A stretch of 64,000 nt of DNA, taken from Acidimicrobiia bacterium (GTDB taxonomy: Bacteria > Actinomycetota > Acidimicrobiia > Spongiisociales > Spongiisociaceae). The notes beneath the pieces are model-generated. The model was not told where the DNA came from. It searched no databases and saw nothing but the letters and a program-made list of their open reading frames with translations. Made by a program: the position numbers and the translations under genes. Below, piece after piece: positions 3,913 through 64,000 of the stretch; the first letter of the stretch is position 1; each line of letters opens with the position of its first letter. The DNA lies in NCBI GenBank assembly GCA_011523635.1, contig WTGI01000009.1:16781-80780 (forward strand), in the 5' to 3' direction.

Positions 3913-4007
3913 GGGCAGATCATGAGAAAGACCGCATGGGGGTTGAAATCGTCACACCCTCGCCATACATTACCCATCGCCAAGCACCTGCGCCGGTCGA
4001 GAGCTCT

Positions 4008-4171
4008 GCCAATTGGCTCGACCGACCCGAGGGAACAATCAGCTTCTAGGAGCGAAGGACCTTCATCCCGGCATCCAGCCGGGTATGGCCGACCACGCTC
4101 CAAACAGGAAAGGTGGTGGTGGGGGAGGGCCCGGTGCGGAGCGCCGGTTTTGCGGCGCGATTTTCGCGTTC
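4008..4171 (+). repeat. Copy 1 of a ~165-nt repeated structured intergenic element (candidate sRNA, cis-RNA or REP/MITE-like)
   Basis: Aligns over its full length with 10957..11118 and partially with the reverse complement of 43910..44076. Shared parts: GCCAATTGGC start, CCCGGCATCCAGCCGGG hairpin, G-rich (GGN)6 tract, hairpin CCGGTGC-GGA-GCGCCGG followed by TTTT, and a terminal CGCGATTTTCGCG hairpin. Reading frames are not conserved between copies, so it is non-coding. Confidence 0.6.
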
Positions 4172-5274
4172 TCGGGCCGGTCCGGCGGTGGCGCCGGGCG
4201 GTTGTGGTGCTGCTTATCTCCTCGCTGGTGGCTTGCGGTTTCGGATCCGACCCGACCGAGGAGGTGCCTTCCCCGGTCTGCGCGTCCGGGCAGATCGACG
4301 GCGAGGTGGTGCTGCTCAGCCGCGACGGGCAGATGGCGCCGGAGGTCATCGACCGGTTCGAGCGGCGCTACGCGGTGGACGTCAAGGAGCTGTTCTACGA
4401 GACCGACGGTGAGATGCTGTCCCGTGTAACCGCAGGCGCCGACCCGTTCGACGTGGTGATTCTTCGCCAGGACCTGGCGGCGATTCTCTGGCGTGGAGGC
4501 CAGCTCCACGCTCTCGACCCGATCGCCTTGCCGGGTCGGGTCAACCTCGACACGCAGCTCACCCGACCGGACTCGGATACCGAGGGCTTCTACACGGTGC
4601 CGCTCGTCTGGGGCACGGTCGGGATCGGTTTGAATGTCAACGTGGTGCCGGACACGGCCGAAACGAGCTGGGGACTCATCTTCGATCTCTCCCAAGCTTG
4701 GATCTACGCGGGTCGGGTCTCGCTCCTTGATGATCCCCGCCAGGTCATGGCCGCCGCCATGTTCTACCTGGGCTACTCGCCGAACTCGGCGAATCGGGAC
4801 GAGGTGCGGGAAGCCGGCCGGGTGGTGGCGGAGGCGAAGGCCCACTTGAGAGGGTTCGATTCCGAGGACTACGCGGCCAGGTTGGCCGATGGGGGGCTCG
4901 ACCTTGCTCAAGGCCGGTCGGATGACTTCCTGGCGGCCCTTGCGCCCGCCTCGGACGACTTCCTCTACGTCATACCCCAGGAAGGGGCCGCGATCTGGTT
5001 GGAGTCGATGGCCGTACCCGTCACCTCCCAGCATCCGTGCAGTGCCCACTCCTTCATCGACTACCTGCTCGAGCCTCGGACAGGAGCGCTAGTGGCCGAC
5101 CATATCGGAGAGGCCACCGCGAATACGGCCTCGCTTTCGTACCTGATGCCCGAGACCGCCGCCAACCGGACGCTCTATCCGACGCTCCTGGCCAGGGAGC
5201 GGCTGGTGCTCCTCGAATACACGGAGGAACTGGACCTCCTGTACGCCGAGGAGTTCGCTCTGGTGGTGGAATAG
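4150..5274 (+). CDS. polyamine (PotD/PotF-like) ABC transporter substrate-binding lipoprotein
   Basis: Lipoprotein signal RRWRRAVVVLLISSLVAC. SBP_bac_1/8-like body (DVVILRQD, YTVPLVWGTVGIGLN, YVIPQEGA) typical of spermidine/putrescine-binding proteins. The track ORF extends to 3922 only by reading through the repeat element. TTG 4150 or a downstream GTG is the likely start. Confidence 0.5.
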   Translation: MRRDFRVLGPVRRWRRAVVVLLISSLVACGFGSDPTEEVPSPVCASGQIDGEVVLLSRDGQMAPEVIDRFERRYAVDVKELFYETDGEMLSRVTAGADPFDVVILRQDLAAILWRGGQLHALDPIALPGRVNLDTQLTRPDSDTEGFYTVPLVWGTVGIGLNVNVVPDTAETSWGLIFDLSQAWIYAGRVSLLDDPRQVMAAAMFYLGYSPNSANRDEVREAGRVVAEAKAHLRGFDSEDYAARLADGGLDLAQGRSDDFLAALAPASDDFLYVIPQEGAAIWLESMAVPVTSQHPCSAHSFIDYLLEPRTGALVADHIGEATANTASLSYLMPETAANRTLYPTLLARERLVLLEYTEELDLLYAEEFALVVE

Positions 5275-6907: not shown

Positions 6908-8200
6908 CTACCGCTGGGAGGCTCGCAGTGCGGCAGCCAGGTCGTCCAACAGGTCGTCCGGATCCTCCAGGCCCACCGAGAGCCGGATCAGGTCCTCCCC
7001 GACCCCGGCCCTGGCCAACTGGTCGGCGCTCATGGTCGAATGGGTGGTCGAAGCCGGGTGGATCACCAGTGACTTGGCATCTCCGACGTTTGCCAGGTGC
7101 GAGAAGATGCGGAGGCGCTCGATGAACCGCCGGCCGGCGTCCCGCCCACCCTTGATGCCGAACGCCAGGATGGCGCCGCACCCGTCAGGCATCAACCGGG
7201 CCGCCCGATCGTGGTCGGGGTGCTCTGGCAGGTCGGGGTGGATGATCCAGGCCACCTCGTCCCGGCCTGTGAGGAAGTCCAGTACTACCCGGGTGTTGGC
7301 GACGTGCTTCTGCATCCGGATAGCCAGGGTCTCCATGCCCTGGAGGATGTAGAAGGCGTTCTGCGGGGCCAGGGGCGCTCCGAAGTCCCGCAGGCCTTCC
7401 ACCCGCCCCCGGATGATGAAGGCCTGCGTTCCGAACTCCTCGGTGAACCGGAGGCCGTGGTAGCTGGGATAGGGCTCCGTCAGGGTGGGGAACTTGCCCG
7501 AGGCCTCCCAGTCGAACCGTCCGCTATCGACCAGCGCTCCGCCCACGGCCAGCCCGTGCCCGCCGATGAACTTGGTCACGGAGTGGTAGGAGAGATCGAC
7601 GCCCCACTCGAAGGGGCGGAACAGGTAGGGAGTGGCAAACGTATTGTCGAGCATGAAAGGCACCAGGGCCTCGTGCGCGATGGCCGCCACGGCCTCCACG
7701 TCCATGATCTCCAGCCCGGGGTTGCCCAGCGTCTCGCCGTACACCAGCCGGGTCTCGGGGCGGATCGCGTCCCGGAAACCGTCGGTGTCCCGCGGATCCA
7801 CGAACGTGGTCCGGATCCCGAAGCGGGGGAGGGTGGTGCCCAGCAGGTTGTTGGATCCTCCGTACAGGGACGAGGAGGAGACGATGTGGTCGCCGGCCCC
7901 CATGAGTGTGGCGATGGCCAGGAACAGGGCGGACATGCCCGAGGCGGTGGCTATCGCCCCGACACCACCCTCGAGCGCCGCCAGCCGCTCCTCCAGGGCG
8001 GCCACGGTCGGGTTCGAGATCCGGCTGTAGATGTGGCCCTGCCGTTCCAGATTGAACAGGCCGGCCGCGTGTTCCACATCACGGAACACGTAGGAGGTGG
8101 TTTGATAGATTGGGATGGCGCGGGCGCCATGGTCGGAATCGGGATGATGGCCGGCGTGCACGCTCAGCGTGTCGAAGTTCAAAAACTTGGGATCAACCAA
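6908..8200 (-). CDS. metY: O-acetylhomoserine sulfhydrylase (aminocarboxypropyltransferase), PLP-dependent
   Basis: 430 aa. Cys/Met-metabolism PLP fold with HSVTKFIGGHG lysine motif, SRISNPTV, and MetY-typical length. TTG start with AGGAGA RBS. Confidence 0.8.
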   Translation of the reverse strand: MVDPKFLNFDTLSVHAGHHPDSDHGARAIPIYQTTSYVFRDVEHAAGLFNLERQGHIYSRISNPTVAALEERLAALEGGVGAIATASGMSALFLAIATLMGAGDHIVSSSSLYGGSNNLLGTTLPRFGIRTTFVDPRDTDGFRDAIRPETRLVYGETLGNPGLEIMDVEAVAAIAHEALVPFMLDNTFATPYLFRPFEWGVDLSYHSVTKFIGGHGLAVGGALVDSGRFDWEASGKFPTLTEPYPSYHGLRFTEEFGTQAFIIRGRVEGLRDFGAPLAPQNAFYILQGMETLAIRMQKHVANTRVVLDFLTGRDEVAWIIHPDLPEHPDHDRAARLMPDGCGAILAFGIKGGRDAGRRFIERLRIFSHLANVGDAKSLVIHPASTTHSTMSADQLARAGVGEDLIRLSVGLEDPDDLLDDLAAALRASQR

Positions 8201-9017: not shown

Positions 9018-10775
9018 TCAAAGGTCGGCGGCGCCGATGTCGAACAGGATCTCGTCCCCGCTGGTAGCGGCGCCGTGAAGGGCCGTGCTGAGCGGTAGCA
9101 GTTGTTCGAGGTAGAAACGGCAGGTGGTCTCCTTCCGGCGGTTTCCCGCGGCGACTGCGGCCGCTCCGGACTCCGCCATCATCGCTCCGGCCGCCACACC
9201 CCCGAACATGAGGCAGTAGGGGCTGGCGCCCGCCAGCACCCGGTTGGGCCGGTCGGTCTGGGCGAGCAGCCGGCCGGTGGCATCCTCGAGTCGAGAAAGG
9301 GCCGCGTCGAGGCTGTCCGCCGCGGCATACCACCCCACGTCGCGCAAGGCGGCCACGGATGGCCACAACGACCGGATGTATGACCCGACGGTCCGGCCTC
9401 CGTCCATGGGGAGCTTGCGCATTACCAGGTCGATGGCCTGGATGCCGTTGGTCCCCTCGTAGATCGGGGTGATGCGGGCGTCGCGCCAATGCTGGGCGGC
9501 GCCGGTCTCCTCGATGTAGCCCATGCCCCCATGCACCTGGATCCCGATCGAAGCCATCTCCACGCCGATCTCCGTGCACCACGACTTGACGACAGGGGTG
9601 AGGAGGGCGAGAAAGTTGGAGTGCCGGCGGCGCTGATCCTCGTCCGGCGCGGCATGGGACAGGTCCTGATGCATGGCCGCCCGGTAGATCAGGGATCGCA
9701 TAGCCTCCGTATAAGAGCGCATGGTCATCAGCATGCGCCGCACGTCGGGGTGATCGATGATCAGCGACATCGGCTCGGTGGCGCCTACCGCACGTCCCTG
9801 GCGCCGCTCTCTGGCGTAGGCGGCCGCCTGCTGGTAGGCCCGCTCCGCCACGGCCATACCCTGGATGCCCACCGATATCCGGGCGGTGTTCATCATCGTG
9901 AACATGTTCCGCATGCCTTGATCGGGGCCTCCCAGCAGGTATCCGACCGCTCCGCCCCGGTCCTCGCCGTAGGCCATGACACAGGTAGGGGTGGCCTTGA
10001 TACCCAGCTTGTGCTCCAGCGACACCACCTTGACATCGTTGCGCTCGCCCGGCTCGCCGTTTGGGTCCGGCAGGAGCTTGGGCACGATGAACATCGAGAT
10101 TCCCCTGGTGCCGGGCGGGGAACCGGTGATGCGGGCCAGTACCAGATGGATCACGTTGCCCGCCATGTCGTGGTCGCCGTAGGTGATGAATATCTTGGTC
10201 CCGGTCAGGCGGTAGGTTCCGTCCCCGGCAGGATGGGCCCTGGTGTCGAGGGCGCCCACATCGGATCCGGCGTGGGGCTCGGTGAGGTTCATCGTGGCCG
10301 ACCACTGGCCGGTGATCAGCTTGGGAAGGTACAGGTCCCTTTGCTCATCGGTTCCGTGGGCGGCGAGAGCGGTGATGGCGCTGGTGGTCAGCAGCGGGCC
10401 GGTACTGAAGGAGAGGCATCCCGAGGTGAAGAGCTCCTCGACGGCCACCCCGAGGATGCGGGGCATGTCGGCGCCACCCCAACGGGCCGGTGCGCCGATC
10501 GTCCCCCACCCGGCGTCGACGTAGGACTTGTAGGCCTCCTGGAATCCGGGCGGGGTGACCACCCGGCCGTCCTCGAGGGTCGACCCCTCCACGTCGCCAA
10601 CCCGGTTGAGAGGCGCCACCAGATCCTGGACGAAGCGGGCGCACTCTTCCAGCAGTGAGCCCACCACGTCCGGCTCGGCGTGGCGGAACGGTTCGAGGCC
10701 GAGGACGTGATCGAGGCCGGCGATGTGCTCGAGGGCGAAGCGGACGTCTCGGAGCGGGGCAACGTAGCCGGACAT
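9018..10775 (-). CDS. acyl-CoA dehydrogenase (long, FadE-like with C-terminal extension)
   Basis: ACAD N/M/C domains (GTKIFITYGDHD, PIYEGTNGIQAIDLV). The track ATG at 10949 is probably too far upstream. MSGYVAPLRDVRF (~10775) is the likely start. Confidence 0.8.
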   Translation of the reverse strand: MSGYVAPLRDVRFALEHIAGLDHVLGLEPFRHAEPDVVGSLLEECARFVQDLVAPLNRVGDVEGSTLEDGRVVTPPGFQEAYKSYVDAGWGTIGAPARWGGADMPRILGVAVEELFTSGCLSFSTGPLLTTSAITALAAHGTDEQRDLYLPKLITGQWSATMNLTEPHAGSDVGALDTRAHPAGDGTYRLTGTKIFITYGDHDMAGNVIHLVLARITGSPPGTRGISMFIVPKLLPDPNGEPGERNDVKVVSLEHKLGIKATPTCVMAYGEDRGGAVGYLLGGPDQGMRNMFTMMNTARISVGIQGMAVAERAYQQAAAYARERRQGRAVGATEPMSLIIDHPDVRRMLMTMRSYTEAMRSLIYRAAMHQDLSHAAPDEDQRRRHSNFLALLTPVVKSWCTEIGVEMASIGIQVHGGMGYIEETGAAQHWRDARITPIYEGTNGIQAIDLVMRKLPMDGGRTVGSYIRSLWPSVAALRDVGWYAAADSLDAALSRLEDATGRLLAQTDRPNRVLAGASPYCLMFGGVAAGAMMAESGAAAVAAGNRRKETTCRFYLEQLLPLSTALHGAATSGDEILFDIGAADL

Positions 10776-10956
10776 GGGCCGCGATTCTAGGTCCGCCCGA
10801 GCGGCCTTCGACCGGCGTCCACCGGCCGGGTAGAGCTCGGGATCTGCCCCGAAGGCACCAGCGTTTTCTCGCGTTCCCGCAAGAGGGGGTTGAATGTGTC
10901 CTACCTCCGCGGTACGTTGCCCACTGCCAAGCACTGACAACCGGTACATGAACTAT

Positions 10957-11118
10957 GCCATTGGCTTTACCGGTCCGAGGGAACATACGAACTTCATGGA
11001 GCGATCGCCGATTCCCGGCAACCACCCGGGTATGGCCGACCACGCTCCGAACAGCAACGGCGGTGGAGGCGGGGGGTGGGCCCGGTGCGGAGCACCGTTT
11101 TTCGCGACTTTTCGCGGG
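10957..11118 (+). repeat. Copy 2 of the ~165-nt repeated structured element
   Basis: About 80% identical to 4008..4171 with compensatory changes in the hairpin (CGGTGC-GGA-GCACCG versus CCGGTGC-GGA-GCGCCGG). It ends 11 nt before the stop of the minus-strand CGS-family gene, so it is antisense to its neighbours. Confidence 0.6.
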
Positions 11119-11128
11119 ATGTGCGGGA

Positions 11129-12280
11129 CTAGAGGCGGTCCAGCCCTTGCGTCAGGTCCTCGATCAGGTCCTCGACGTCCTCGAGGCCCACGGAGATGCG
11201 CACCAGCCCGTCGGTAATGCCGACCCGGAGACGTTCGGGTTTCTCGACATCGGCGTGGGTCATGGTGACCGGATGGGTGATCAGCGACTCCACCGACCCT
11301 AGGTTCTCCGCCAGGGTCCACACCCGGAGAGATCTCATCAGCGCCTTGGCGGCCTCCACGCCGCCCTCGACCTCGAACCATCCCATGGCGCCGTATCCGG
11401 AGGCCTGCTTGGTGGCCAGTTCGTGCTGGGGGAACGAGGCCAACCCCGGGTAGGAGACACCGGTCACCTTGGGGTGGTCCTCCAAGAACTCGGCCACCGC
11501 CATGGCGTTGGCCGATTGGCGATCCATCCGCTCGCTCAGGGTCTTGCTGCCTTGGAGCGTCAGCCACGCCACCATGGGCGACATGATCAGGCCGGCTGCG
11601 TTCTGCACGAATGCCACCGCCTCCGAGAGCGCCTCCGTCCGGGACACCACCGCTCCACCCACCGTGGCGTTATGACCGTCGAAGTACTTGGTGGTGGAGT
11701 GCACCACCAGGTCGGCGCCGAGCTCGATCGGGCGCTGGAAATAGGGAGTCAGGAAGGTGTTGTCCACTGCGTGGGGGATTCCCAGCGAGGTGGCGATCTC
11801 GGAGACCGCGGCGATGTCCGTGTACTTGAGGGTCGGGTTGGCGGGTGTCTCGGTGAAGACGAGCCGGGTCCGTTCGTTGATCGCGGCCCTCACCGCATCG
11901 AGGTCGGATGTGTCGGCGAAGGTGAAGTCCACCCCGAATCGGGTGAACACCTTGGTGGCGAGGCGGTAGGTGCCCCCGTAGGCGACATCGCTGACCACCG
12001 CGTGATCCCCGGCATTGAGGAGGGCCATGAAAACGGCGTTGGTGGCGGCCATGCCGGACGAGAACGCCGCCGAGCCGATCCCGCCCTCCAGCTTGGCGAC
12101 TCGGGCCTCGAACGCCGTGACGGTGGGGTTGCCGGAACGGGAGTACGAGTAACCGGTAGCCATGTAGTCGTCCACCGACGGCTGCACGAAGGTGGTCGAC
12201 TGATGTATGGGCGTGAGGATGGCGCCACTGGAAGGGTCAGGCGTCACCCCGGCATGTATCTGGTCTGTTCTGAACCCCAT
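11129..12280 (-). CDS. Cys/Met-metabolism PLP-dependent enzyme (cystathionine gamma-synthase / gamma-lyase family)
   Basis: 383 aa, HAGVTPDPSSGAILTPIHQSTTF, YSRSGNPT, HSTTKYFDGHN lysine motif. MetB, MetC and MccB cannot be told apart by eye. Confidence 0.75.
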   Translation of the reverse strand: MGFRTDQIHAGVTPDPSSGAILTPIHQSTTFVQPSVDDYMATGYSYSRSGNPTVTAFEARVAKLEGGIGSAAFSSGMAATNAVFMALLNAGDHAVVSDVAYGGTYRLATKVFTRFGVDFTFADTSDLDAVRAAINERTRLVFTETPANPTLKYTDIAAVSEIATSLGIPHAVDNTFLTPYFQRPIELGADLVVHSTTKYFDGHNATVGGAVVSRTEALSEAVAFVQNAAGLIMSPMVAWLTLQGSKTLSERMDRQSANAMAVAEFLEDHPKVTGVSYPGLASFPQHELATKQASGYGAMGWFEVEGGVEAAKALMRSLRVWTLAENLGSVESLITHPVTMTHADVEKPERLRVGITDGLVRISVGLEDVEDLIEDLTQGLDRL

Positions 12281-16627: not shown

Positions 16628-16746
16628 TTGAGGTTTGCCGAGGTGGTTGCTACGTCGCGGAAGATCGCGGGCACGAGGGCGCGCCGCGCCAAGGTAGCCG
16701 GTCTGGCCGATCTCCTCGCTCGGGCGGAGCCCGAAGAGATACGGAT
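16628..16746 (+). pseudogene. 5' fragment (about 40 codons) of an ATP-dependent DNA ligase (LigB-like), separated from the rest of the gene by an IS insertion
   Basis: TTG start with a GGAGG RBS. It encodes MRFAEVVATSRKIAGTRARRAKVAGLADLLARAEPEEIR, a LigB N-terminus. The frame resumes exactly at 19866 after the element (EEIR|ILVGFLSGRP). Confidence 0.7.
16739..16746. repeat. 8-bp target-site duplication, left copy (ATACGGAT)
   Basis: Identical 8-mer at 19866..19873, immediately outside the other inverted repeat. Confidence 0.8.
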
Positions 16747-16768
16747 GGGAATTATACGCTTGACTTGA
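16747..16768. repeat. left terminal inverted repeat of the IS1595-family element
   Basis: GGGAATTATACGCTTGACTTGA. Similarity extends a few nt further inward. Confidence 0.8.
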
Positions 16769-17093: not shown

Positions 17094-17366
17094 TTAGACA
17101 CCGGCGCCGCCTTCTAGGTCCTGGACCCGAACGGTCAGGTCCGATACCGCGTCGATAAGCGCGGTGACGCCGGACTTGACGAAAGTCATGTCGTTCTCCA
17201 ACCCGTCGAGCCGTCCGTCCATTATGTCGAGTCTGCCGTCTATCCCGTCGAGCCTGCCGTTGATCCTGCCGATATCGCCCTTGATGACACCAAGGTCGTT
17301 CAGGATCACCGAGAACGCGGTCTCGATGTCGAACCCCTTGGGTTGACGGCGCGGCAGCGCGGCCAT
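17094..17366 (-). CDS. small coiled-coil protein with DGxxGRLD heptad-like repeats (passenger gene)
   Basis: The 90-aa version starts at MAALPRRQ with a GGAAGGAA RBS. Repeats are GRINGRLDGIDGRLDIMDGRLDGLEND. It loosely resembles XhlA-like phage coiled-coil proteins. Confidence 0.45.
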   Translation of the reverse strand: MAALPRRQPKGFDIETAFSVILNDLGVIKGDIGRINGRLDGIDGRLDIMDGRLDGLENDMTFVKSGVTALIDAVSDLTVRVQDLEGGAGV

Positions 17367-19833: not shown

Positions 19834-21272
19834 GCCCGGTTTGTCAAGTCAAGCGTATAATCCCCATACGGATCCTGGTCGGCTTCCTCTCCGGCCGGCC
19901 GCGGCAGGGACGTGTTGGCGTGGGCCCGGCCGCGCTGTGGGCTTCGAAGGTCGATCCCGTGCCGGAACCGATCCTCGACATCACGGAGGTAGATCGGGTG
20001 ATCGGCACGATCCCGGGTATCACGGGTTCCGGTTCCCAGGCTCGCCGGACCGACCTGCTCGAGTTCCTGCTCGGTAGGGCCACCTCTGACGAGCAGGACT
20101 ACCTGCGGCGGCTGCTGACCGGAGAACTGCGGCACGGCGCGCTCGAGGGCCTGATGATGGACGCGGTGGCGGTGGCGTCGGGAATCGATGCGGCAGTGGT
20201 GAGGCGGGCCGCCATGCTCGGGGGTGACCTCGGATCGATCGCCGTTCCGGCCCTCACGGAGGGAGCGGAGGCTCTGCAGGCGATGCGCATCGTTCCGTTG
20301 CGGCCGGTCCGGCCGATGCTGGCCTCGACCTCCGCGTCGGCCGCGGATGCGATGGAGTCGTCCGGGCGGGCATCGGTGGAGTGGAAGCTCGACGGCGTCC
20401 GCATCCAGGCGCACCGGTCCGGTTCGCAGGTGGCGGTGTTCAGCCGGCGGCTCAACGACGTCACCGACCGGCTGCCGCTGGTGGCCGAGGTGGTGTCCGG
20501 CCTTCCCGTCTCGAGCGTGGTGCTCGACGGGGAGGTGCTGGCTCATGATCTCGAGGGCCGGCCGGAGCGCTTCGAGCAGATCATGAGCCACTTCGGCACC
20601 CATGAGGAGGGCGGCAGGAAACCGCTGTACCCGCACTTCTTCGACATCCTGCATCTCGACGGCGAGGATCTGATCGACCTTCCCCTCGGACGGCGCATCG
20701 CCGTGCTCGAGGACCTGGTCCCGAGCGAGTGTCTGGTTCCCAGGCTGGTCACCGACCGGGTCGCGGAAGCCGAGGGTGCCTTGTCGGAAGCCCGCCGGAG
20801 CCGCCACGAGGGGATCATGGTCAAGGCGATCGGCTCGACCTACCAGGCGGGCCGGAGGGGGTCGGCCTGGCTCAAGGTCAAGCCGGCCTATCACCTCGAC
20901 CTGGTGGTGCTGGCCGCCGAATGGGGCCACGGGCGCCGGACCGGGCGGCTCTCCAACCTGCACCTGGGTGCCCGGGACGCCGAGAGCGACCGGTTCGTGA
21001 TGGTGGGCAAGACCTTCAAGGGCCTGACCGATGCGATGCTGGCCTGGCAGACCGAGCGGTTCCTGGAGATCGCGGTCCGAAGGGAACGCCATGTCGTGTT
21101 CCTGCAGCCCGAGGTGGTGGTGGAGGTGGCCTTCGACGGGGTTCAGTCGAGCCCGGTGTATCCGGGCGGGGTAGCGCTCCGTTTCGCCCGCGTCAAGCAG
21201 TACCGGCCCGACAAGCCGCCCGTTCAGGCCGACACCATCCAGCGGATCCAGCGGATATTCGAGGAACGCTGA
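19800..21272 (+). CDS. ATP-dependent DNA ligase (LigB-like), 3' portion after the IS insertion point
   Basis: EWKLDGVR (KxDG adenylation motif), then the OB domain and C-terminal LKVKPAYHLDLVV. The track ORF begins at an ATG inside the transposon right end (19800). Native codons resume at 19866 (IRILVGFLSGRPRQ, compare mycobacterial LigB). Confidence 0.75.
   Translation: MWCSCLYSRRSRPVCQVKRIIPIRILVGFLSGRPRQGRVGVGPAALWASKVDPVPEPILDITEVDRVIGTIPGITGSGSQARRTDLLEFLLGRATSDEQDYLRRLLTGELRHGALEGLMMDAVAVASGIDAAVVRRAAMLGGDLGSIAVPALTEGAEALQAMRIVPLRPVRPMLASTSASAADAMESSGRASVEWKLDGVRIQAHRSGSQVAVFSRRLNDVTDRLPLVAEVVSGLPVSSVVLDGEVLAHDLEGRPERFEQIMSHFGTHEEGGRKPLYPHFFDILHLDGEDLIDLPLGRRIAVLEDLVPSECLVPRLVTDRVAEAEGALSEARRSRHEGIMVKAIGSTYQAGRRGSAWLKVKPAYHLDLVVLAAEWGHGRRTGRLSNLHLGARDAESDRFVMVGKTFKGLTDAMLAWQTERFLEIAVRRERHVVFLQPEVVVEVAFDGVQSSPVYPGGVALRFARVKQYRPDKPPVQADTIQRIQRIFEER
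19844..19865. repeat. right terminal inverted repeat of the IS1595-family element
   Basis: TCAAGTCAAGCGTATAATCCCC is the reverse complement of GGGGATTATACGCTTGACTTGA. Confidence 0.8.
19866..19873. repeat. 8-bp target-site duplication, right copy (ATACGGAT)
   Basis: Identical to 16739..16746. Confidence 0.8.
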
Positions 21273-43909: not shown

Positions 43910-44076
43910 GAACGCGAAAATCGCGGGAGCGGGCTCCGCCCGCCGGGCCCTCCCCACCGCCACCACCTTGGTCGGGGCGCGTTTTGCTATGCCCTGGTGG
44001 GGGCTGCCCCGAACGATTTGATCCGTCGAGAGGCCTGGTAGACGTCCGAACCGGGCCGTTGGTAATTACGGTTATC
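43910..44076 (-). repeat. Copy 3 of the repeated structured element (minus orientation, 5' half diverged)
   Basis: The reverse complement carries ...AAGGTGGTGGCGGTGGGGAGGGCCCGGCGGGC-GGA-GCCCGCTCCCGCGATTTTCGCGTTC. It has the same G-tract, a GGA-loop hairpin with covarying stem, and an identical terminal CGCGATTTTCGCGTTC. It lies directly downstream of msrB on the same strand. Confidence 0.5.
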
Positions 44077-44157
44077 CACTAACATACAACGGTGGTGTGA
44101 CATGTTCAACCCCTCTGTGGAGGTGACCGCCGCAGGTTGTGGGGAATCCCAGCCGGG

Positions 44158-44571: not shown

Positions 44572-44766
44572 TCTCCGGTTCCTTCCCTTGGTGGCGCTGG
44601 CTTCCGACGCGACTGGCAGGCTCCGTACGACCGACAACGGAATCGGTGCCAGGACCCCTGCAATAGCGATCGCAATGATCCTATCCTTATGTCATGGCAA
44701 CTGAACATGAACGCCCGGGCGGGGCTGTCAACAGACTCCCCGGCCCAATGATCCTAACCCTGTCCC

Positions 44767-46491
44767 ATGGCGGCTGAACCCGTGGGTCCCGCCGCCGCCT
44801 CCTCGGGCAACCAGCCCCCGAGCGGGTGGAGATCGACCAGGGACTACTTCCTCGCCGGGCTGGTGGCGAGCGGGTTCGCCGTGGCCTTCTCCGAGATGCT
44901 CGCCTCGTTCTTCGTGTCGGCGCCCTCGCTGGTGCTGACGATCGGGCAGAGGTTCATCGACATCACCCCGGCCGCCCTCAAGGACTGGGCCATCGCCGTC
45001 TTCGGCACCAACGACAAGGCGGTCCTGATCGGAGGGATCGTGGTGGTGACGATCATCATCGGCGGCCTGCTGGGTGTGTTGGCCCGCGAGCGCATGCCGC
45101 TGGCTGCGATGGGGTTCGTCGCCTTCGGGGTGCTCGGCTACGCGCTGGGAATCACCGACCCGCTCGCCACGGCAGGCGCCACCTTCATTCCCGCCATAGC
45201 GGCGGCCGGGAGCGGCATCGCCGTGCTGGTCCTGCTCCGTCGCCTCCTCCAGGGACCTGCCGCCGAGGCCGCCGAGGCTATCGATGCCACCGGGGCCGTG
45301 TCGCCGGACTCCCGGCGGGCGTTCATGACCGCTTCGGGCGCCGCAGTCGTTCTCGCGGCGGGCCAGGTGGTGATCGGGCGGCTCGCCGCCGGCCGGACGC
45401 AGTCGGTGGTGGCGGCCCGCGAGCAGGTCACGCTTCCCACGGTGGCCGCCTCACCCTCGACGACCGCCGCCCCCGCCAGCACCACCACGGTGGCTGCCAC
45501 CGTGGCTGTCGAGGAAACGGCGGTGGCGGAGACCACGGCCACCACCGCGGCCGAGACGGAGGTGGTACGCACCGTGGCGGATCCGACACCCGCCCAGATC
45601 GCCCAGGTGGAAGGGGTGTCGGAGTTGATCACGCCCAACGAGACCTTCTACCGGATCGACACCGCGCTCAGCATCCCCAACGTCGACCTGGACACCTGGG
45701 AGGTCAGCTTCACCGGCCTGGTGGACTCACCCTTCAGCCTCACCTATGACGAGTTGACGGCCCTTCCCATGGTGGAGCGCTACATCACCATCTGCTGCGT
45801 CTCGAACTCCGTGGGAGGCGACCTGATCGGCAACGCCAAGTGGCTCGGCGTTCCCCTGAAGGATCTGGTGGAGCGGGCCGGCGTCCGGCCCGAAGGCACG
45901 CAGTTGATCGGTCGCTCGGTCGATCGCTTCACGGTCGGCTTCCCCACCGAGGCGGTATTCGACGGGCGAGAAGCGTTGCTGGCGATCGGCATGAACGGAG
46001 AGCCCCTTCCGGTCAGGCACGGCTTCCCCGCCCGGCTGGTGGTCTCCGGCCTGTACGGGTACGTCTCCGCCACCAAGTGGCTGTCCGAGGTCGAATTCGC
46101 CCGCTGGGAGGACTTCGACGCCTACTGGATACCGCGAGGTTGGGCCAAGGAGGCCCCGATCAAGACCCAGTCCCGGATCGATACGCCCCGCCCGGGCACC
46201 GTGGCCGTCGGCACGCAAGCCATCGCCGGAGTGGCCTGGGCACAGAATCTAGGCATCGACAGGGTCGAGGTCCAGGTCGATGACGGGCCGTGGATGGAGG
46301 CCATCCTGCCTGAGGAGCTCGCCATTGACACCTGGCGCCAGTGGCACGTCGAGTACGACTTCACGCCAGGCCCCCACACCATTGCGGTGAGGGCCACGGA
46401 CCGGTCCGGGTACACCCAGACCTCCGAGATAGTCCCGCCCCGGCCGGACGGAGCGACCGGCTACCACACTGTCCAGGTGGTAGTGGTCTGA
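44767..46491 (+). CDS. membrane-anchored molybdopterin-dependent oxidoreductase (sulfite oxidase / MsrP-like family)
   Basis: N-terminal polytopic membrane domain, an Ala/Thr-rich linker, then a Moco-binding SUOX-family domain (YRIDTALSIPNVDLDTWEVSFTGLV...ITICCVSNSVGGDLIGNAKWLGVPL) and a dimerisation-like C-terminus. Confidence 0.65.
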   Translation: MAAEPVGPAAASSGNQPPSGWRSTRDYFLAGLVASGFAVAFSEMLASFFVSAPSLVLTIGQRFIDITPAALKDWAIAVFGTNDKAVLIGGIVVVTIIIGGLLGVLARERMPLAAMGFVAFGVLGYALGITDPLATAGATFIPAIAAAGSGIAVLVLLRRLLQGPAAEAAEAIDATGAVSPDSRRAFMTASGAAVVLAAGQVVIGRLAAGRTQSVVAAREQVTLPTVAASPSTTAAPASTTTVAATVAVEETAVAETTATTAAETEVVRTVADPTPAQIAQVEGVSELITPNETFYRIDTALSIPNVDLDTWEVSFTGLVDSPFSLTYDELTALPMVERYITICCVSNSVGGDLIGNAKWLGVPLKDLVERAGVRPEGTQLIGRSVDRFTVGFPTEAVFDGREALLAIGMNGEPLPVRHGFPARLVVSGLYGYVSATKWLSEVEFARWEDFDAYWIPRGWAKEAPIKTQSRIDTPRPGTVAVGTQAIAGVAWAQNLGIDRVEVQVDDGPWMEAILPEELAIDTWRQWHVEYDFTPGPHTIAVRATDRSGYTQTSEIVPPRPDGATGYHTVQVVVV

Positions 46492-46518
46492 TCCGGCGGG
46501 GACCTTCTAGTGGTCTGC

Positions 46519-46555
46519 TGGTCTTCGGCGCCAAATCCGACATTTGGTCTTCGTC
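46519..46555. repeat. 35-nt hairpin-containing repeat, copy A (GGCGCCAAATCCGACATTTGGTCTTCGTCTAACG)
   Basis: 33/35 identical to the reverse complement of 47803..47838. It has an internal CCAAAT/ATTTGG stem and lies 28 nt after the stop of the Mo oxidoreductase gene. Confidence 0.6.
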
Positions 46556-46919
46556 TAACGCGGCAGTTGGGTGCGGCGGTCGTCGTGTACTGGCCGACAT
46601 TCGTTCGGCTGCTTCAGGAACTGAGTGCTGTACCGTGATTGAAGACCGGTACATGGAGTTGCTGGGTGATGTTATGGCCCTGGTTCGTGCGCTCCGTGTG
46701 CACGGCCACCATATATTGAGACCGCTGGGCTATCAGCCTGGGATGCCAGCCATCCGATAGTGGCCTCACGGTTCGAGCTTCGCGCTGCGACGAACAACGT
46801 GTGTCACGGTCGGGCCCCCTTGTCTCCGGGCACGGACTTGCGAGACGATATTGGTGAGGACGCGAGGCGCGAAATGCCGAGCCGAGTTGAGCTTGCTTGA
46901 GCCCGCGGGATGCTCCCGG

Positions 46920-47802: not shown

Positions 47803-47838
47803 CGTTAGACGAAGACCAGATGTCGGATTTGGCACCGA
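47803..47838. repeat. 35-nt hairpin-containing repeat, copy B (inverted relative to copy A)
   Basis: CGTTAGACGAAGACCAGATGTCGGATTTGGCACCG, 15 nt after the yebC stop on the yebC sense strand. Confidence 0.6.
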
Positions 47839-47852
47839 TGCTCGGCCAACCC

Positions 47853-48593
47853 CTACTCGGCCAGAGCAGCCAGGTAATCGTCGGGGATGTCGAAGTTCCC
47901 GTAGACGCCTTGCACGTCGGCCAGTTCGTCCAGCGTGTCCACCAGGCGCAGGACCCTGGCGGCGCCGGAAGCGTCCAGCGGGATGGTCGTGGAGGGGAGT
48001 TGGGTGATCTCGGCGGTCTGCACGGACAGTTCGGCCTCCGCGAGGGCGTCCCGGACCGCCGGGAAGTCGGTCGGAGCCGTGATCACCTCGAACTGGTCCC
48101 CGCTCTCGCGGACGTCCTCGGCGCCCGACTCCAGCGCCGCCATCAAGACATCATCCTCCTCACCTTCTACTAGAAGGTAACCCTTCTGGTCGAAGAGGTA
48201 GGCAACTGAGCCCGGCTCGCCGAGGTTGCCCCCGTTCCGGGTGAAGGCGGACCGGATGTCGGAGGCGGCCCGGTTCCGGTTGTCGGTGAGCGCCTGCACC
48301 AGCAGCGCCACTCCCCCGGGTGCGTAGCCTTCGTAGAAGACCGTGTCGAGGCGCTCGCCCACCAGCTCTCCGGTACCCCGCTTGATGGCCCGCTCTATGT
48401 TGTCCTTGGGAACCGAGGCAGACCTGGCCTTGTCGATAGCGGTGGCCAGCACCGCGTTTCCTGCCGGATCGCCACCACCCTGGCGAGCCGCCGCCTCGAC
48501 GGCGCGGCACAGCTTGGCGAACAGGTTGCCCCGCGCCGCGTCCTGGCGCCCCTTGCGGTGCTTGATGTTCGCCCACTTGGAATGACCGGCCAT
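47853..48593 (-). CDS. yebC: YebC/PmpR family DNA-binding transcriptional regulator
   Basis: MAGHSKWANIKHRKGRQDAARGNLFAKL, the diagnostic YebC N-terminus. 246 aa. Confidence 0.85.
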   Translation of the reverse strand: MAGHSKWANIKHRKGRQDAARGNLFAKLCRAVEAAARQGGGDPAGNAVLATAIDKARSASVPKDNIERAIKRGTGELVGERLDTVFYEGYAPGGVALLVQALTDNRNRAASDIRSAFTRNGGNLGEPGSVAYLFDQKGYLLVEGEEDDVLMAALESGAEDVRESGDQFEVITAPTDFPAVRDALAEAELSVQTAEITQLPSTTIPLDASGAARVLRLVDTLDELADVQGVYGNFDIPDDYLAALAE

Positions 48594-58651: not shown

Positions 58652-58747
58652 GAGGCGATTGGTTCCAAGCGGTCTTTGACCGGCGGTCAGTGGCCCCTAC
58701 GGACACTGGAACGATCCATGCTGATACAATCGATCATATATAACTAT

Positions 58748-58782
58748 GAACTAGCAACTAGCAACTAGCAACTAGCAACTAG
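58748..58782. repeat. tandem heptanucleotide repeat (GAACTAG + 4x CAACTAG) in an AT-rich island
   Basis: Five perfect head-to-tail 7-mers. On the minus strand these read TAGTTGC x5 immediately after the stop codon of the MshD-like gene, which is itself inside the repeat. Confidence 0.8.
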
Positions 58783-59671
58783 TCCAGCGGTAGGCGCGGT
58801 CGGTGCGTTCGGTGGTGAAGCCGAGGCGCCGGTAGAGGTTCACGGCGGCGACGTTGGCCGAGTCCACGTAGAGGATCGCTCTGGTGGCATGCCTGTGGCG
58901 AGCGAGGTAGTCGAGCCCGTCGAGTGCGATGGCGCGGCCCAGTCCGCGGCCGAGGAAGGCGGGATCGACCGCCAGTACGTAGATCTCGCCCAGCGCGCCC
59001 CCGTCGGGTGCCGGCGTATCGTGGACCTTGGTCCAGTGGAATGTGACCAGGCGGCCGTCGATCCGGCCGGTGCGGAGTCCGCGGGGATCGAACCACGGCA
59101 TCGAGGTCCGCCGCGCCAGGTCCTGTAGTGACCAGCCGCCCTGCTCGGGGTGGCCCTCGAAGGCCCGGTTGTTGACCTCGATAAGGGCTTGCGCATCCCG
59201 GTCGACATCGAATCCGGCGAACCGGACGCCCGCCGGTGGCCGGCCGATGCCGGGGACGGGAAGTGCGGCCGCCATCAGGTACAGATCTCGTTCGTGGGTG
59301 AAGAGCGCACGTGGAGGCTCGAGGGCCGCGGTGTGGAGCCAGAGCACCGCTTCCTCGATCCCGGCGGCATCCAGGTCCTCGACGACTCCGGTGAGAAACC
59401 GTTCCGGCCGGCCGGAGTCGTCAGCCAATTCCAGCGTCCAGACCCTCCCGTCGGGGTTGGAGGCGGCGAAGGCATAGGAGACCAGCCTTCCGCCTGCCCA
59501 CGCGGCGTAGCCCAGTCCCCCACTGCCAGGGTCGTTCATGGCTGCTCGAAGGACCTCCCCGAAGGGCGGGGCGCCCTGCTTCTCGGTGACCCTGGCGATG
59601 AGATTCACCAGCTGCTCCCCGAGTTCGCCCGGCGAAGTGCGACATACCTCCATTGGCGCCGGAGGGTACAA
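58772..59671 (-). CDS. tandem-GNAT acetyltransferase, mycothiol synthase (MshD)-like
   Basis: About 300 aa with two GNAT modules. The C-terminal module has YVLAVDPAFLGRGLGRAIALDGLDYLARH...LYVDSANVAAVNLYRRLGF. Confidence 0.55.
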   Translation of the reverse strand: MYPPAPMEVCRTSPGELGEQLVNLIARVTEKQGAPPFGEVLRAAMNDPGSGGLGYAAWAGGRLVSYAFAASNPDGRVWTLELADDSGRPERFLTGVVEDLDAAGIEEAVLWLHTAALEPPRALFTHERDLYLMAAALPVPGIGRPPAGVRFAGFDVDRDAQALIEVNNRAFEGHPEQGGWSLQDLARRTSMPWFDPRGLRTGRIDGRLVTFHWTKVHDTPAPDGGALGEIYVLAVDPAFLGRGLGRAIALDGLDYLARHRHATRAILYVDSANVAAVNLYRRLGFTTERTDRAYRWTSC

Positions 59672-63614: not shown

Positions 63615-63863
63615 CGGGTCATTACAGCCAGGTAATTACCTGTGTGCGAGCCGTACGATAGACCATCGGGAGCCGCGTTCCAACGGTTTCCCGGGGATGC
63701 CCACCCCCCGGGCGCGGGGATTTGCCCTGGGTTCAGCCCGGCCTGGACGATCCGTTCCGAGTCGGTTCAGGCCGTCTGAGTTTCACTGCGCAGGGGCTGA
63801 GAACCACGGGAAACAGCAGGAGAAAGAACCACGGCAGCCTTGACTTGACCTCAATAATAATTA

Positions 63864-63898
63864 ACGACTATCAACTAACAACTAGCAACTAAAAACTA
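63864..63898. repeat. degenerate tandem heptad repeat (ACGACTA TCAACTA ACAACTA GCAACTA AAAACTA) in an AT-rich island
   Basis: Same NCAACTA heptad family as 58748..58782. Again it overlaps the stop codon of a minus-strand gene. Confidence 0.6.
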
Positions 63899-64000
63899 AC
63901 CGCTCCTGAAGTCCTCTGGCGACAGATCTTCGAGGAACTCCCGGAAGGCCTCCACCTCCGCCTCCTGGTGGTCGTCCTTGATCTCGATGCCGGCGTCGTC
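63896..64000 (-). CDS. partial CDS (C-terminal end only; gene continues beyond the window)
   Basis: Open minus-strand frame ...DDAGIEIKDDHQEAEVEAFREFLEDLSPEDFRSG* ending with TAG at 63896..63898. Confidence 0.3.
   Translation of the reverse strand, partial: DDAGIEIKDDHQEAEVEAFREFLEDLSPEDFRSG

Follow-up and report, generated by a model that had tools for sequence, protein, structure and literature searches.

What does a structured repeat encode when it lies antisense to the genes on both of its sides? The question is raised by a 64,000-nucleotide (nt) stretch of contig WTGI01000009.1 from an Acidimicrobiia bacterium (the whole stretch is called the window here; G+C content 66.6%), where one copy of such a repeat, copy 2, is found on the + strand inside a 353-nt spacer flanked by two minus-strand genes. 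When the window was compared with itself, 10913..11116 (+) matched 3966..4168 (+), the site of copy 1, with 75.8% identity over 211 nt (E=1.6e-32). As read from the sequence, copy 2 is quite probably a free-standing gene that encodes a structured small RNA of ~177 nt and belongs to an undescribed, dispersed family in sponge-associated Acidimicrobiia. The family would be a new one within a known kind, that of multicopy, independently transcribed small RNA genes, with transcription being predicted here from conserved signals.

A previous, sequence-only reading had placed the repeat at 10957-11118, antisense between the two minus-strand genes, and this arrangement was confirmed by the match to copy 1 together with Pfam and public gene calls. 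The repeat is real, but its start had been set too late, which left out the promoter and the first 31 nt, and with them the conserved 5' end GCCAAGCAC and the 5' side of the first hairpin. The full unit is located at ~10864..11116 (+) and consists of a −35/−10 pair, a 177-nt predicted RNA and a hairpin followed by a T5 terminator run. The distances given earlier, 11 nt to the stop codon of one neighbour and about 180 nt to the start of the other, an acyl-CoA dehydrogenase gene, were right for the coordinates then used; in the full unit the −35 box is ~115 nt from the dehydrogenase start and the T5 run is 26 nt from the stop codon of 11129..12280 (-). The GGA hairpin with T5 that had been noticed on the + strand was recovered by a terminator scan (11083..11097, then TTTTT).

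Promoter and terminator signals are conserved on one strand

Each unit appears to carry its own housekeeping-type promoter, with a predicted start at the conserved GCCAAGCAC. In copy 2 the signals begin with a T-rich/CGCG motif at 10864..10879 (+), where TTTTCTCGCGTTCCCG is a variant of the family consensus TTTTCGCGTTCTCG. Across the family TTTCGCG keeps a constant distance (−23) from the −35 box in 39/82 copies, and its density outside the elements is 0.07 per kb. The −35-like hexamer TTGAAT (10890..10895, +), with GGGGG just before it, aligns with TTGAA in all pattern-retrieved copies and is separated by a 17-nt spacer from the −10-like hexamer TACGTT (10913..10918, +). To have an unbiased set we used 30 copies that an RNA-core pattern had retrieved by itself, leaving the promoter unused. 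Among copies retrieved in this manner the −35 hexamer varies, while the −10 sequence TAnGTT and the spacer GTC stand at a constant distance from the RNA 5' end in 30/30 copies, and GCCAAGCAC, at 10926 in copy 2, is exact in 27/30. The corresponding pair of copy 1, TTGAAA-17-TACATT, was called by a promoter scan.

At the other end, the intrinsic terminator (11083..11102, +) has the stem CGGUGC/GCACCG and the loop GGA, then T5, and a T4 run follows the terminator hairpin in 27/30 unbiased copies. Conservation of promoter and terminator is confined to one strand; read on the minus strand, the terminator hairpin is followed by GGCCCACCCCCC and no T-run. Past the terminator there are two TTTCGCG motifs (11100..11116, +; CGCGA-CUUU-UCGCG), repeating the upstream motif. 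The motif is found downstream of the terminator in 63/82 copies, and all four matches in the window to a search pattern containing TTTCGCG are located at the 3' ends of the three copies. The motif common to both ends of the element is TTTTCGCG(TTCTCG), a direct repeat.

Anatomy of the predicted RNA

The predicted 177-nt RNA extends from 10926 to 11102 (+), with a start inferred 7-8 nt past the −10 box and an end at the T5 run; a covariance model of the family, R1, matches 10926..11103 with 146.1 bits (E about 5e-29). According to this model the RNA would fold into a P1 hairpin with a self-complementary loop and a long, irregular P2-P2b-P3 arm, a helix between the 5' and 3' parts (P0) would probably close the fold, and a G-rich tract and the intrinsic terminator would make up its end.

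The conserved 5' end GCCAAGCACU (10926..10935, +) is the proposed 5' strand of P0, with its partner at 11062..11070. The compensatory change that speaks for P0 comes from copy 3, the diverged third copy in the window, which carries ACCG/CGGU where others carry GCCA/UGGC; it is the only one for this helix. P1 (ACCGGUA/UACCGGU; 10940..10974, +) encloses a 21-nt loop with the self-complementary word GCCAUUGGC at 10957..10965. Such a word is present in 72/78 distinct P1 loops as compared to 11% of shuffled loops, and the word stays palindromic when it changes, most copies having CCGAUCGG, copy 1 CCAAUUGG and copy 2 CCAUUGG. Next comes an unpaired conserved junction, CCGAGGGAACA (10975..10985, +), of which a 79-sequence alignment shows GGG as invariant and AACA as nearly so. 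The long arm (10998..11048, +) consists of P2 (GGAGCG/CGCUCC), P2b (GCC/GGC) and P3 (CCCGG/CCGGG) and includes the near-invariant AUGGCCGACCA; pairing is kept in 98% for P2, with AU to GC exchanges, 96% for P2b and 89% for P3. The G-rich tract GCGGUGGAGGCGGGGGGUGG (11060..11079, +) includes the proposed P0 3' strand as well as GGUGGUGGCGGGGG, which is nearly invariant family-wide.

The structure was drawn by hand and turned into R1, with which 101 matches, 100 of them distinct, were realigned. Standard pairs occupy 93.3% of the cells in the alignment of the 100 distinct copies, and changes on both sides were seen in 18/37 pairs. The number of double-change cells was 202, compared to 48.8 +/- 5.5 in shuffles, and 0/500 shuffles reached the observed value. 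An alignment fitted to the model favours the structure; however, sliding the 3' partners by 1-3 columns gave at most 53 double-change cells, which argues for a real covariation signal. It is strong in P1, where six of the seven pairs have 24 to 33 double-side changes each, and in the terminator, where all 7 pairs change on both sides across the family, and it is present in P2. In P0, P2b and P3 covariation is uninformative because these helices are nearly invariant. G-U is in excess over A-C (69:34 over P1, P2, P2b, P3 and the terminator), which fits an RNA read from the promoter-bearing strand. Our case for the structure uses comparative evidence only, as single-sequence folds match shuffles on both strands (minus strand, z=+0.31).

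Two candidate anti-terminators were considered. In the first, a 5' segment opposite the terminator's 5' arm is 67% paired, which does not exceed the controls, and shows no covariation; the 3' arm of P3 against the same terminator arm is pairable in 81.5% of cells, nearly invariant and likewise without covariation.

The family is found in sponge-associated Acidimicrobiia

A search pattern that combined the promoter with the RNA 5' end retrieved 110 stretches from a species-representative genome collection. They come from nine metagenome-assembled genomes (MAGs), all of them Acidimicrobiia and, if classified to that level, placed in the order Ca. Spongiisociales; their labels are Acidimicrobiia, "bacterium" or Candidatus Spongiisocius, a genus of this order. 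Copies per genome range from 8 to about 31, with a single match in one MAG, and lineage-specific subfamilies can be distinguished among them. A pattern from the P2 arm of the RNA alone matched 31 metagenome stretches, several of which are on MKWU contigs, an assembly from the sponge Aplysina aerophoba. The same pattern gave zero matches in viral contigs, which rules against a phage origin. The closest genome to the window among the loci checked is RHO1_bin_64, where the orthologues of copies 1 and 2 are on one contig (L119 and L118).

No match to Rfam 15 was obtained for the whole window at the gathering threshold (SAM-I/IV, T-box, raiA, HEARO, 6S and Y-RNA-like included). In E-value mode, copies 1 and 2 and two subfamily representatives reached chance-level scores of at most 21 bits, against gathering scores of at least 35. 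A literature search found no paper that mentions Spongiisocius or describes such an RNA. The predicted RNA family has no Rfam counterpart, is well populated (over 100 examples), covaries clearly and has well-defined ends; it comes from an uncultivated and ecologically important symbiont lineage whose non-coding RNAs are unexplored. As the family is compact and its predicted 5' and 3' ends are precise, it is directly testable in existing sponge metatranscriptomes.

Copies are oriented independently of their neighbours

Gene orientations were taken from a simple finder based on open reading frames (ORFs) and codon usage, which reproduces the public calls for the window. All 100 distinct full copies lie outside genes. 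Their upstream neighbour shares their strand in 54 cases and is opposite in 38; the downstream neighbour is opposite in 59 and shares the strand in 25 (84 cases; binomial p=0.0003). Copy 2 is thus typical rather than an exception, since the downstream gene is opposite in 59/84 cases, and 24/100 copies are, like copy 2, opposite to both neighbours. This contradicts one outcome the sequence-only reading had allowed for, in which all other copies are sense-oriented downstream of genes and copy 2 is displaced by a local rearrangement. The bias among downstream genes arises because convergent spacers are preferred (28 observed vs. 11.2 expected; chi-square p=3.5e-7); in tandem spacers orientation is unbiased (24:16, p=0.27). 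Copies are oriented independently of their neighbours, and for many of them a convergent gene has its stop codon within 13-100 nt.

In the window, the gene upstream of copy 2 and divergent from its promoter encodes the acyl-CoA dehydrogenase (9018..10775, -; 585 aa in the public gene calls, identified with Pfam), with a start at window position 10775 that was taken from public gene calls on 16 contigs with the same locus. The convergent gene on the other side encodes a Cys/Met-metabolism pyridoxal-phosphate (PLP) enzyme of the CGS family (11129..12280, -; Pfam PF01053, E=6e-143). It is one of two such enzymes, 3 kb apart; the other is encoded at 6908..8200 (-) and has an alpha/beta hydrolase beside it. 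The two nearby genes prompted the idea of an S-adenosylmethionine (SAM) or other sulfur riboswitch, which was rejected since no Rfam match was found and the flanking genes are unrelated family-wide. Pfam analysis of the downstream proteins (24 same-strand, 43 opposite-strand) gave unrelated functions, and the recurrences were orthologous loci. A cis-regulatory leader (riboswitch or attenuator) was rejected as well: only 25/84 copies share the strand of their downstream gene, and copy 2 is antisense to both neighbours. In this respect the sequence-only reading, which had argued from orientation against a cis-acting attenuator, is borne out. The best-supported interpretation of the sequence data is that copy 2 is not a regulator of the CGS-family gene or the dehydrogenase gene. 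Because the attenuator-like repeat would be a stand-alone gene, annotation as a leader or riboswitch should be avoided for copies beside genes of transport or sulfur metabolism.

The RNA would then most likely act in trans rather than on adjoining genes. Its conserved unpaired motifs may be bound by a partner, and the palindromic P1 loop may allow kissing between RNAs; the palindrome could equally be a protein site at the DNA level. In a farther-reaching and tentative proposal, which we regard as possible but rather doubtful, the elements would represent a new class of structured RNA specific to obligate sponge symbionts and encoded in dispersed promoter-terminator cassettes. Loops would pair the RNAs with each other, the motifs GCCAAGCAC, GAGGGAACA, AUGGCCGACCA and GGUGGUGGCGGGGG would bind a dedicated partner, and the result would be an abundant multimeric RNA or ribonucleoprotein with a symbiosis-related role, while the cassettes would invert or re-insert at the same spacers. 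Other ideas, namely a CsrA-type GGA sponge, a ribosomal anti-Shine-Dalgarno decoy and a hammerhead-like core, were dropped by eye, since conservation of the GGA, GGAGG and CUGAUGA-like words does not extend from one subfamily to another.

Orthologous copies are conserved while the adjoining spacer decays

Orthologues of copy 2 in the same place and orientation were found at three loci (L011, L073 and L118). Pairwise identity is 87-90% for the element, 62-77% for the adjacent 105 nt of spacer and mostly 85-91% for flanking coding DNA. Identity at the level of coding DNA, while the spacer decays, shows purifying selection on the orthologous copy 2. The window locus is spanned by nine population contigs, in which the element has one and the same orientation and 98-100% identity; a tenth holds its last 51 nt only.

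Across the family, 60/98 copies have a syntenic counterpart of the same orientation in another genome (73 pairs). None of these belongs to the SB0661_bin_4/ROBB21 lineage; outside the SB0661 lineage 60/76 copies are syntenic between genomes. Four loci are common to SB0661/ROBB21 and Spongiisocius-type genomes, and at all of them the element has the reverse orientation with respect to the shared genes, in 14/14 pairs (L013:10477-10722, L061:1826-2074, L016:2448-2735 and L089:3458-3717, against counterparts in seven other genomes). One of these, L013, has three copies, one of which is sense-oriented inside the spacer between the CGS-family and dehydrogenase genes, and at L014 this spacer is only 58 nt long and holds no element. 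The loci L011 (a related genome), L013 (a more distant one) and L014 (a third lineage) were fetched through homologues of the neighbouring binding protein. The inverted arrangement may have arisen in place or by re-insertion, the spacers of the window and L013 being too diverged to align.

We found no consistent terminal or flanking inverted repeats of the unit in the window and in three SB0661-type loci. Copy-specific target duplications were likewise lacking: the longest words shared by the two flanks are the TTTTCGCG motif, and their distribution equals that of mismatched flank pairs. The sequence-only reading had proposed to look for short direct repeats beside each copy, as left by a miniature inverted-repeat transposable element (MITE); the words shared between flanks are a motif of the family. 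Nor did Pfam scans of flanking proteins reveal a transposase or another recurrent gene adjoining the copies. Probably, the units spread by duplication into intergenic, gene-poor spacers, mainly between convergent genes, and were then stably inherited and retained by selection. The inverted loci in a sister lineage, the conserved end motifs and the self-complementary loop could reveal how RNA genes of this type multiply.

Alternative explanations

Several observations speak against a free-standing RNA gene. The hexamers of copy 2 are below the threshold of a consensus promoter scan and were not called. In single sequences the fold energy is no better than in shuffles (z = −0.42 and −0.22), RNAalifold on a MAFFT alignment recovered P2 and nothing else, and P0, P2b and P3 are nearly invariant, so that the argument for P0 and P3 is one of conservation. 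No target or partner was identified in a search covering the window, which holds no other complementary site. The orientation counts depend on our in-house ORF and codon-usage finder, and many copies are orthologues, which makes the counts not independent. Finally, the high copy number and the terminal direct-repeat motifs also fit a selfish repeat, some copies are truncated, decayed or interrupted, and many of those in SB0661_bin_4 are at contig ends.

The last group of observations is best captured by a selfish, non-autonomous mobile repeat, a MITE-like element or mobile promoter cassette, whose RNA has no cellular role and whose promoter, hairpins and terminator serve its spread or are incidental. 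The unit is ~240 bp, ORF-less, multicopy and polymorphic for presence and absence (absent at L014), as a MITE is. The 8 to about 31 copies per genome and the lineage-specific subfamilies are in line with this, as are the SB0661_bin_4 copies at contig ends, expected of recent near-identical repeats, the CGS-dehydrogenase spacer with the element present, absent or inverted by lineage, the truncated or interrupted copies, TTTTCGCG(TTCTCG) at both ends, the enrichment in convergent spacers (p=3.5e-7) and the REP-like arrays beside many copies (REP, repetitive extragenic palindrome). However, terminal inverted repeats, copy-specific target-site duplications and a transposase or recurrent neighbour are all lacking, and 60/76 copies outside the SB0661 lineage are syntenic. 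Spread would account for the number of copies, but it leaves unexplained why orthologous copies stay as conserved as coding DNA. We therefore consider a purely selfish repeat unlikely. In place of spread, an inverton could be invoked, i.e. a promoter cassette that flips in place and switches transcription between its neighbours, as the element is inverted in all 14 cross-lineage pairs at all four shared loci. Flanking inverted repeats were not found, though, the nine spanning population contigs share one orientation, 73/73 syntenic pairs among closer genomes keep theirs, and the predicted transcript ends inside the cassette, all of which makes such a switch very improbable. A strand-symmetric hairpin, acting as a bidirectional terminator or as a 3' stabiliser of the flanking mRNAs, is in our view just as hard to sustain. 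The terminator hairpin is G+C-rich and many copies are 13-100 nt from a convergent stop codon, but promoter and T-run are on one strand only, and a unit of ~240 bp with conserved unpaired motifs goes far beyond the needs of a terminator. G-U exceeds A-C 2:1 on the + strand, and the minus-strand fold gives z=+0.31. Because no T-run follows the hairpin on the minus strand, where GGCCCACCCCCC is found instead, the element is neither a symmetric REP/MITE hairpin nor a bidirectional terminator. On the same grounds of length, one-strand promoter and T-run, and a G-U to A-C ratio of 69:34, membership of the REPs or bacterial interspersed mosaic elements (BIMEs) was rejected. Of the two readings left open by the sequence-only analysis, the independently transcribed small RNA is favoured by the one-strand promoter and terminator, the covariation, the G-U excess, the orientation independent of neighbours and the coding-like conservation, all at the level of sequence; of the REP/MITE-like hairpin the dispersed repeat remains, and the strand symmetry does not.

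A regulatory role in cis would be regained if a signal-dependent terminator let transcription enter the 3' end of the convergent gene, here that of the Cys/Met PLP enzyme. The downstream gene is convergent in 59/84 cases, the T5 run of copy 2 is 26 nt from the stop codon, and the P3 3' arm could pair with the terminator 5' arm in 81.5% of cells. Against this, the bias is accounted for by the preference for convergent spacers (tandem spacers being 24:16), the convergent genes have no common function, and in the sister lineage's equivalent spacer the element is sense-oriented. The switch is further weakened because neither candidate anti-terminator covaries and the neighbouring genes are unrelated, and no Rfam riboswitch, SAM classes included, was matched. 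An antisense regulator of this kind is in our judgement improbable. A small protein gene on the + strand is refuted at the sequence level. The ORFs 10894..11217 and 10955..11302 do exist, ATGGAGCG and ATGGCCGA are conserved, and a 135-aa ORF over 10895..11302 was called as a gene in two related contigs (L005 and L007). The conserved blocks are, however, distributed over the frames 22:22:13 and 26:19:8 relative to the two conserved ATGs, and because they occupy all three frames the element is not coding. In line with this, the indels in the alignment of copies 1 and 2 have lengths not divisible by three, the variation in the helices is compensatory, and the ORF crosses, in antisense, the end of a gene that is itself well supported.

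Comparison with known systems

By its predicted mode of action, the element is closest to families of sibling small RNAs such as NsiR1, Qrr and LhrC. Anabaena carries about 12 NsiR1 copies in tandem, every one of them with a promoter and terminator to itself. Together with Qrr1-5, LhrC1-5 and the cia-dependent csRNAs, it shares with the family described here the organization in paralogous, short intergenic transcription units with a conserved fold and conserved unpaired motifs. The element has no sequence or Rfam relationship to any of them, is dispersed rather than tandem with its 8 to about 31 copies, and encodes a longer, more elaborately folded predicted RNA. Its unpaired conserved parts are purine- or G-rich, as opposed to the C/U-rich seeds typical of Gram-positive small RNAs.

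In genomic behaviour it partly resembles promoter-bearing dispersed repeats. Correia/NEMIS elements of Neisseria, with their terminal inverted repeats and TA duplication, and other promoter- or terminator-bearing MITEs are likewise short, ORF-less, intergenic and multicopy and bring promoters or terminators near genes; Correia/NEMIS elements and similar MITEs are also transcribed into structured RNA. Unlike Correia elements, ours has neither inverted repeats nor a duplication, is strongly asymmetric, and its orthologues are under purifying selection. REP/BIME and REPIN sequences are similarly intergenic, repeated, hairpin-forming and frequent after convergent genes, but REPs are imperfect palindromes of 20-40 nt without a promoter, whereas the element is a polar unit of ~240 bp with a predicted multi-helix RNA. 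A resemblance to putative mobile promoters comes from copies in which the promoter and the first 10-60 nt are fused to unrelated downstream sequence (L030, L042, L046, L070 and L086); most copies differ from these in having a complete RNA and terminator, so that transcription from their promoter would not normally enter a gene.

Riboswitch-controlled antisense RNAs are known from Clostridium, with an S-box upstream of the antisense RNA to ubiG-mccBA, and from Listeria, with the B12 riboswitch of AspocR. Like these, copy 2 combines a predicted structured RNA and a terminator aimed at the 3' end of a sulfur-amino-acid gene, but it matches no riboswitch, the convergent genes share no functional theme, neither candidate anti-terminator is supported, and the element is reversed in a sister lineage. 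Finally, the P1 loop recalls the dimerization initiation site (DIS) kissing loop of HIV-1 in that it exposes a self-complementary word of 6-10 nt, which in the element stays palindromic through its changes (CCGAUCGG, CCAAUUGG); the resemblance would be in possible mechanism only.

Other copies and minor observations

Copy 1 (3943..4172, +; model 146.4 bits) has its promoter at 3943..3971, the predicted RNA at 3979..4151 and the 3' motif CGCGATTTTCGCGTTCT at 4156..4172, and immediately precedes a gene for a PotD-like binding protein (Pfam). The start of this gene in the public calls, TTG at 4150, is within the T-run of the copy 1 terminator (4138..4152), and the loop GGAG of the terminator is 8 nt upstream of the TTG. 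As judged from these positions, the terminator may overlap the ribosome-binding site of the PotD-like gene. The diverged copy 3 (43917..44109, -) has the promoter TTGAAC (44109..44104) and TATGTT (44086..44081) and a predicted RNA at 44072..43917, with a 5' end that reads ACCGUAAUUACC in place of GCCAAGCACC. It was detected by nhmmer (E=5e-8) and matched the covariance model with 23.5 bits (E=0.001).

In related genomes, REP-like arrays (CAGGGCGTCA-n5-7-TGACGCCCTG, then CCTCAGG) lie directly 3' of ~40% of copies, within the 100-130 nt that follow the terminator at L019, L076, L062, L114, L109, L038, L101, L120, L022, L048, L055 and L096, and none is beside the copies of the window. The end motif also occurs as TTTTCGCG(TTCT/AGTT) in 2-5 tandem units with a period of ~21 nt, at L042:3700-3860 and also, past the terminator, at L093 and L030; such units resemble iterons or a protein-binding array. 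In the metagenome contigs L137, L144 and L146 the 3' part of the element after GGGUGGUGGUGGGGGAG is replaced by G-rich repeats (GGTTTGGGGGGTTGG), and the contigs end there. A low-G+C insertion cuts one copy after the GGGTGGT tract at L044 (minus strand, ~170 nt past the match at 924-968) and contains an ORF that by eye only is a candidate for a DUF4065/Panacea-type antitoxin domain.

Other repeats were seen elsewhere in the window. A 53-nt inverted repeat (46508..46560 / 47803..47855, 83% complementary) encloses 1242 nt and one of 31 nt (16738..16768 / 19844..19874, 90% complementary) encloses 3075 nt; both may be insertion-sequence ends or mark invertible segments. A 34-nt direct repeat (44673..44706 / 44746..44779, 73 nt apart) overlaps the start of an ORF at 44767. 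Tandem repeats of 7 nt (CAACTAG-like) are located in locally A+T-rich DNA at 58726..58795 and 63857..63912, 5.1 kb apart, and a 21-nt tandem repeat with three units is found at 17197..17272.

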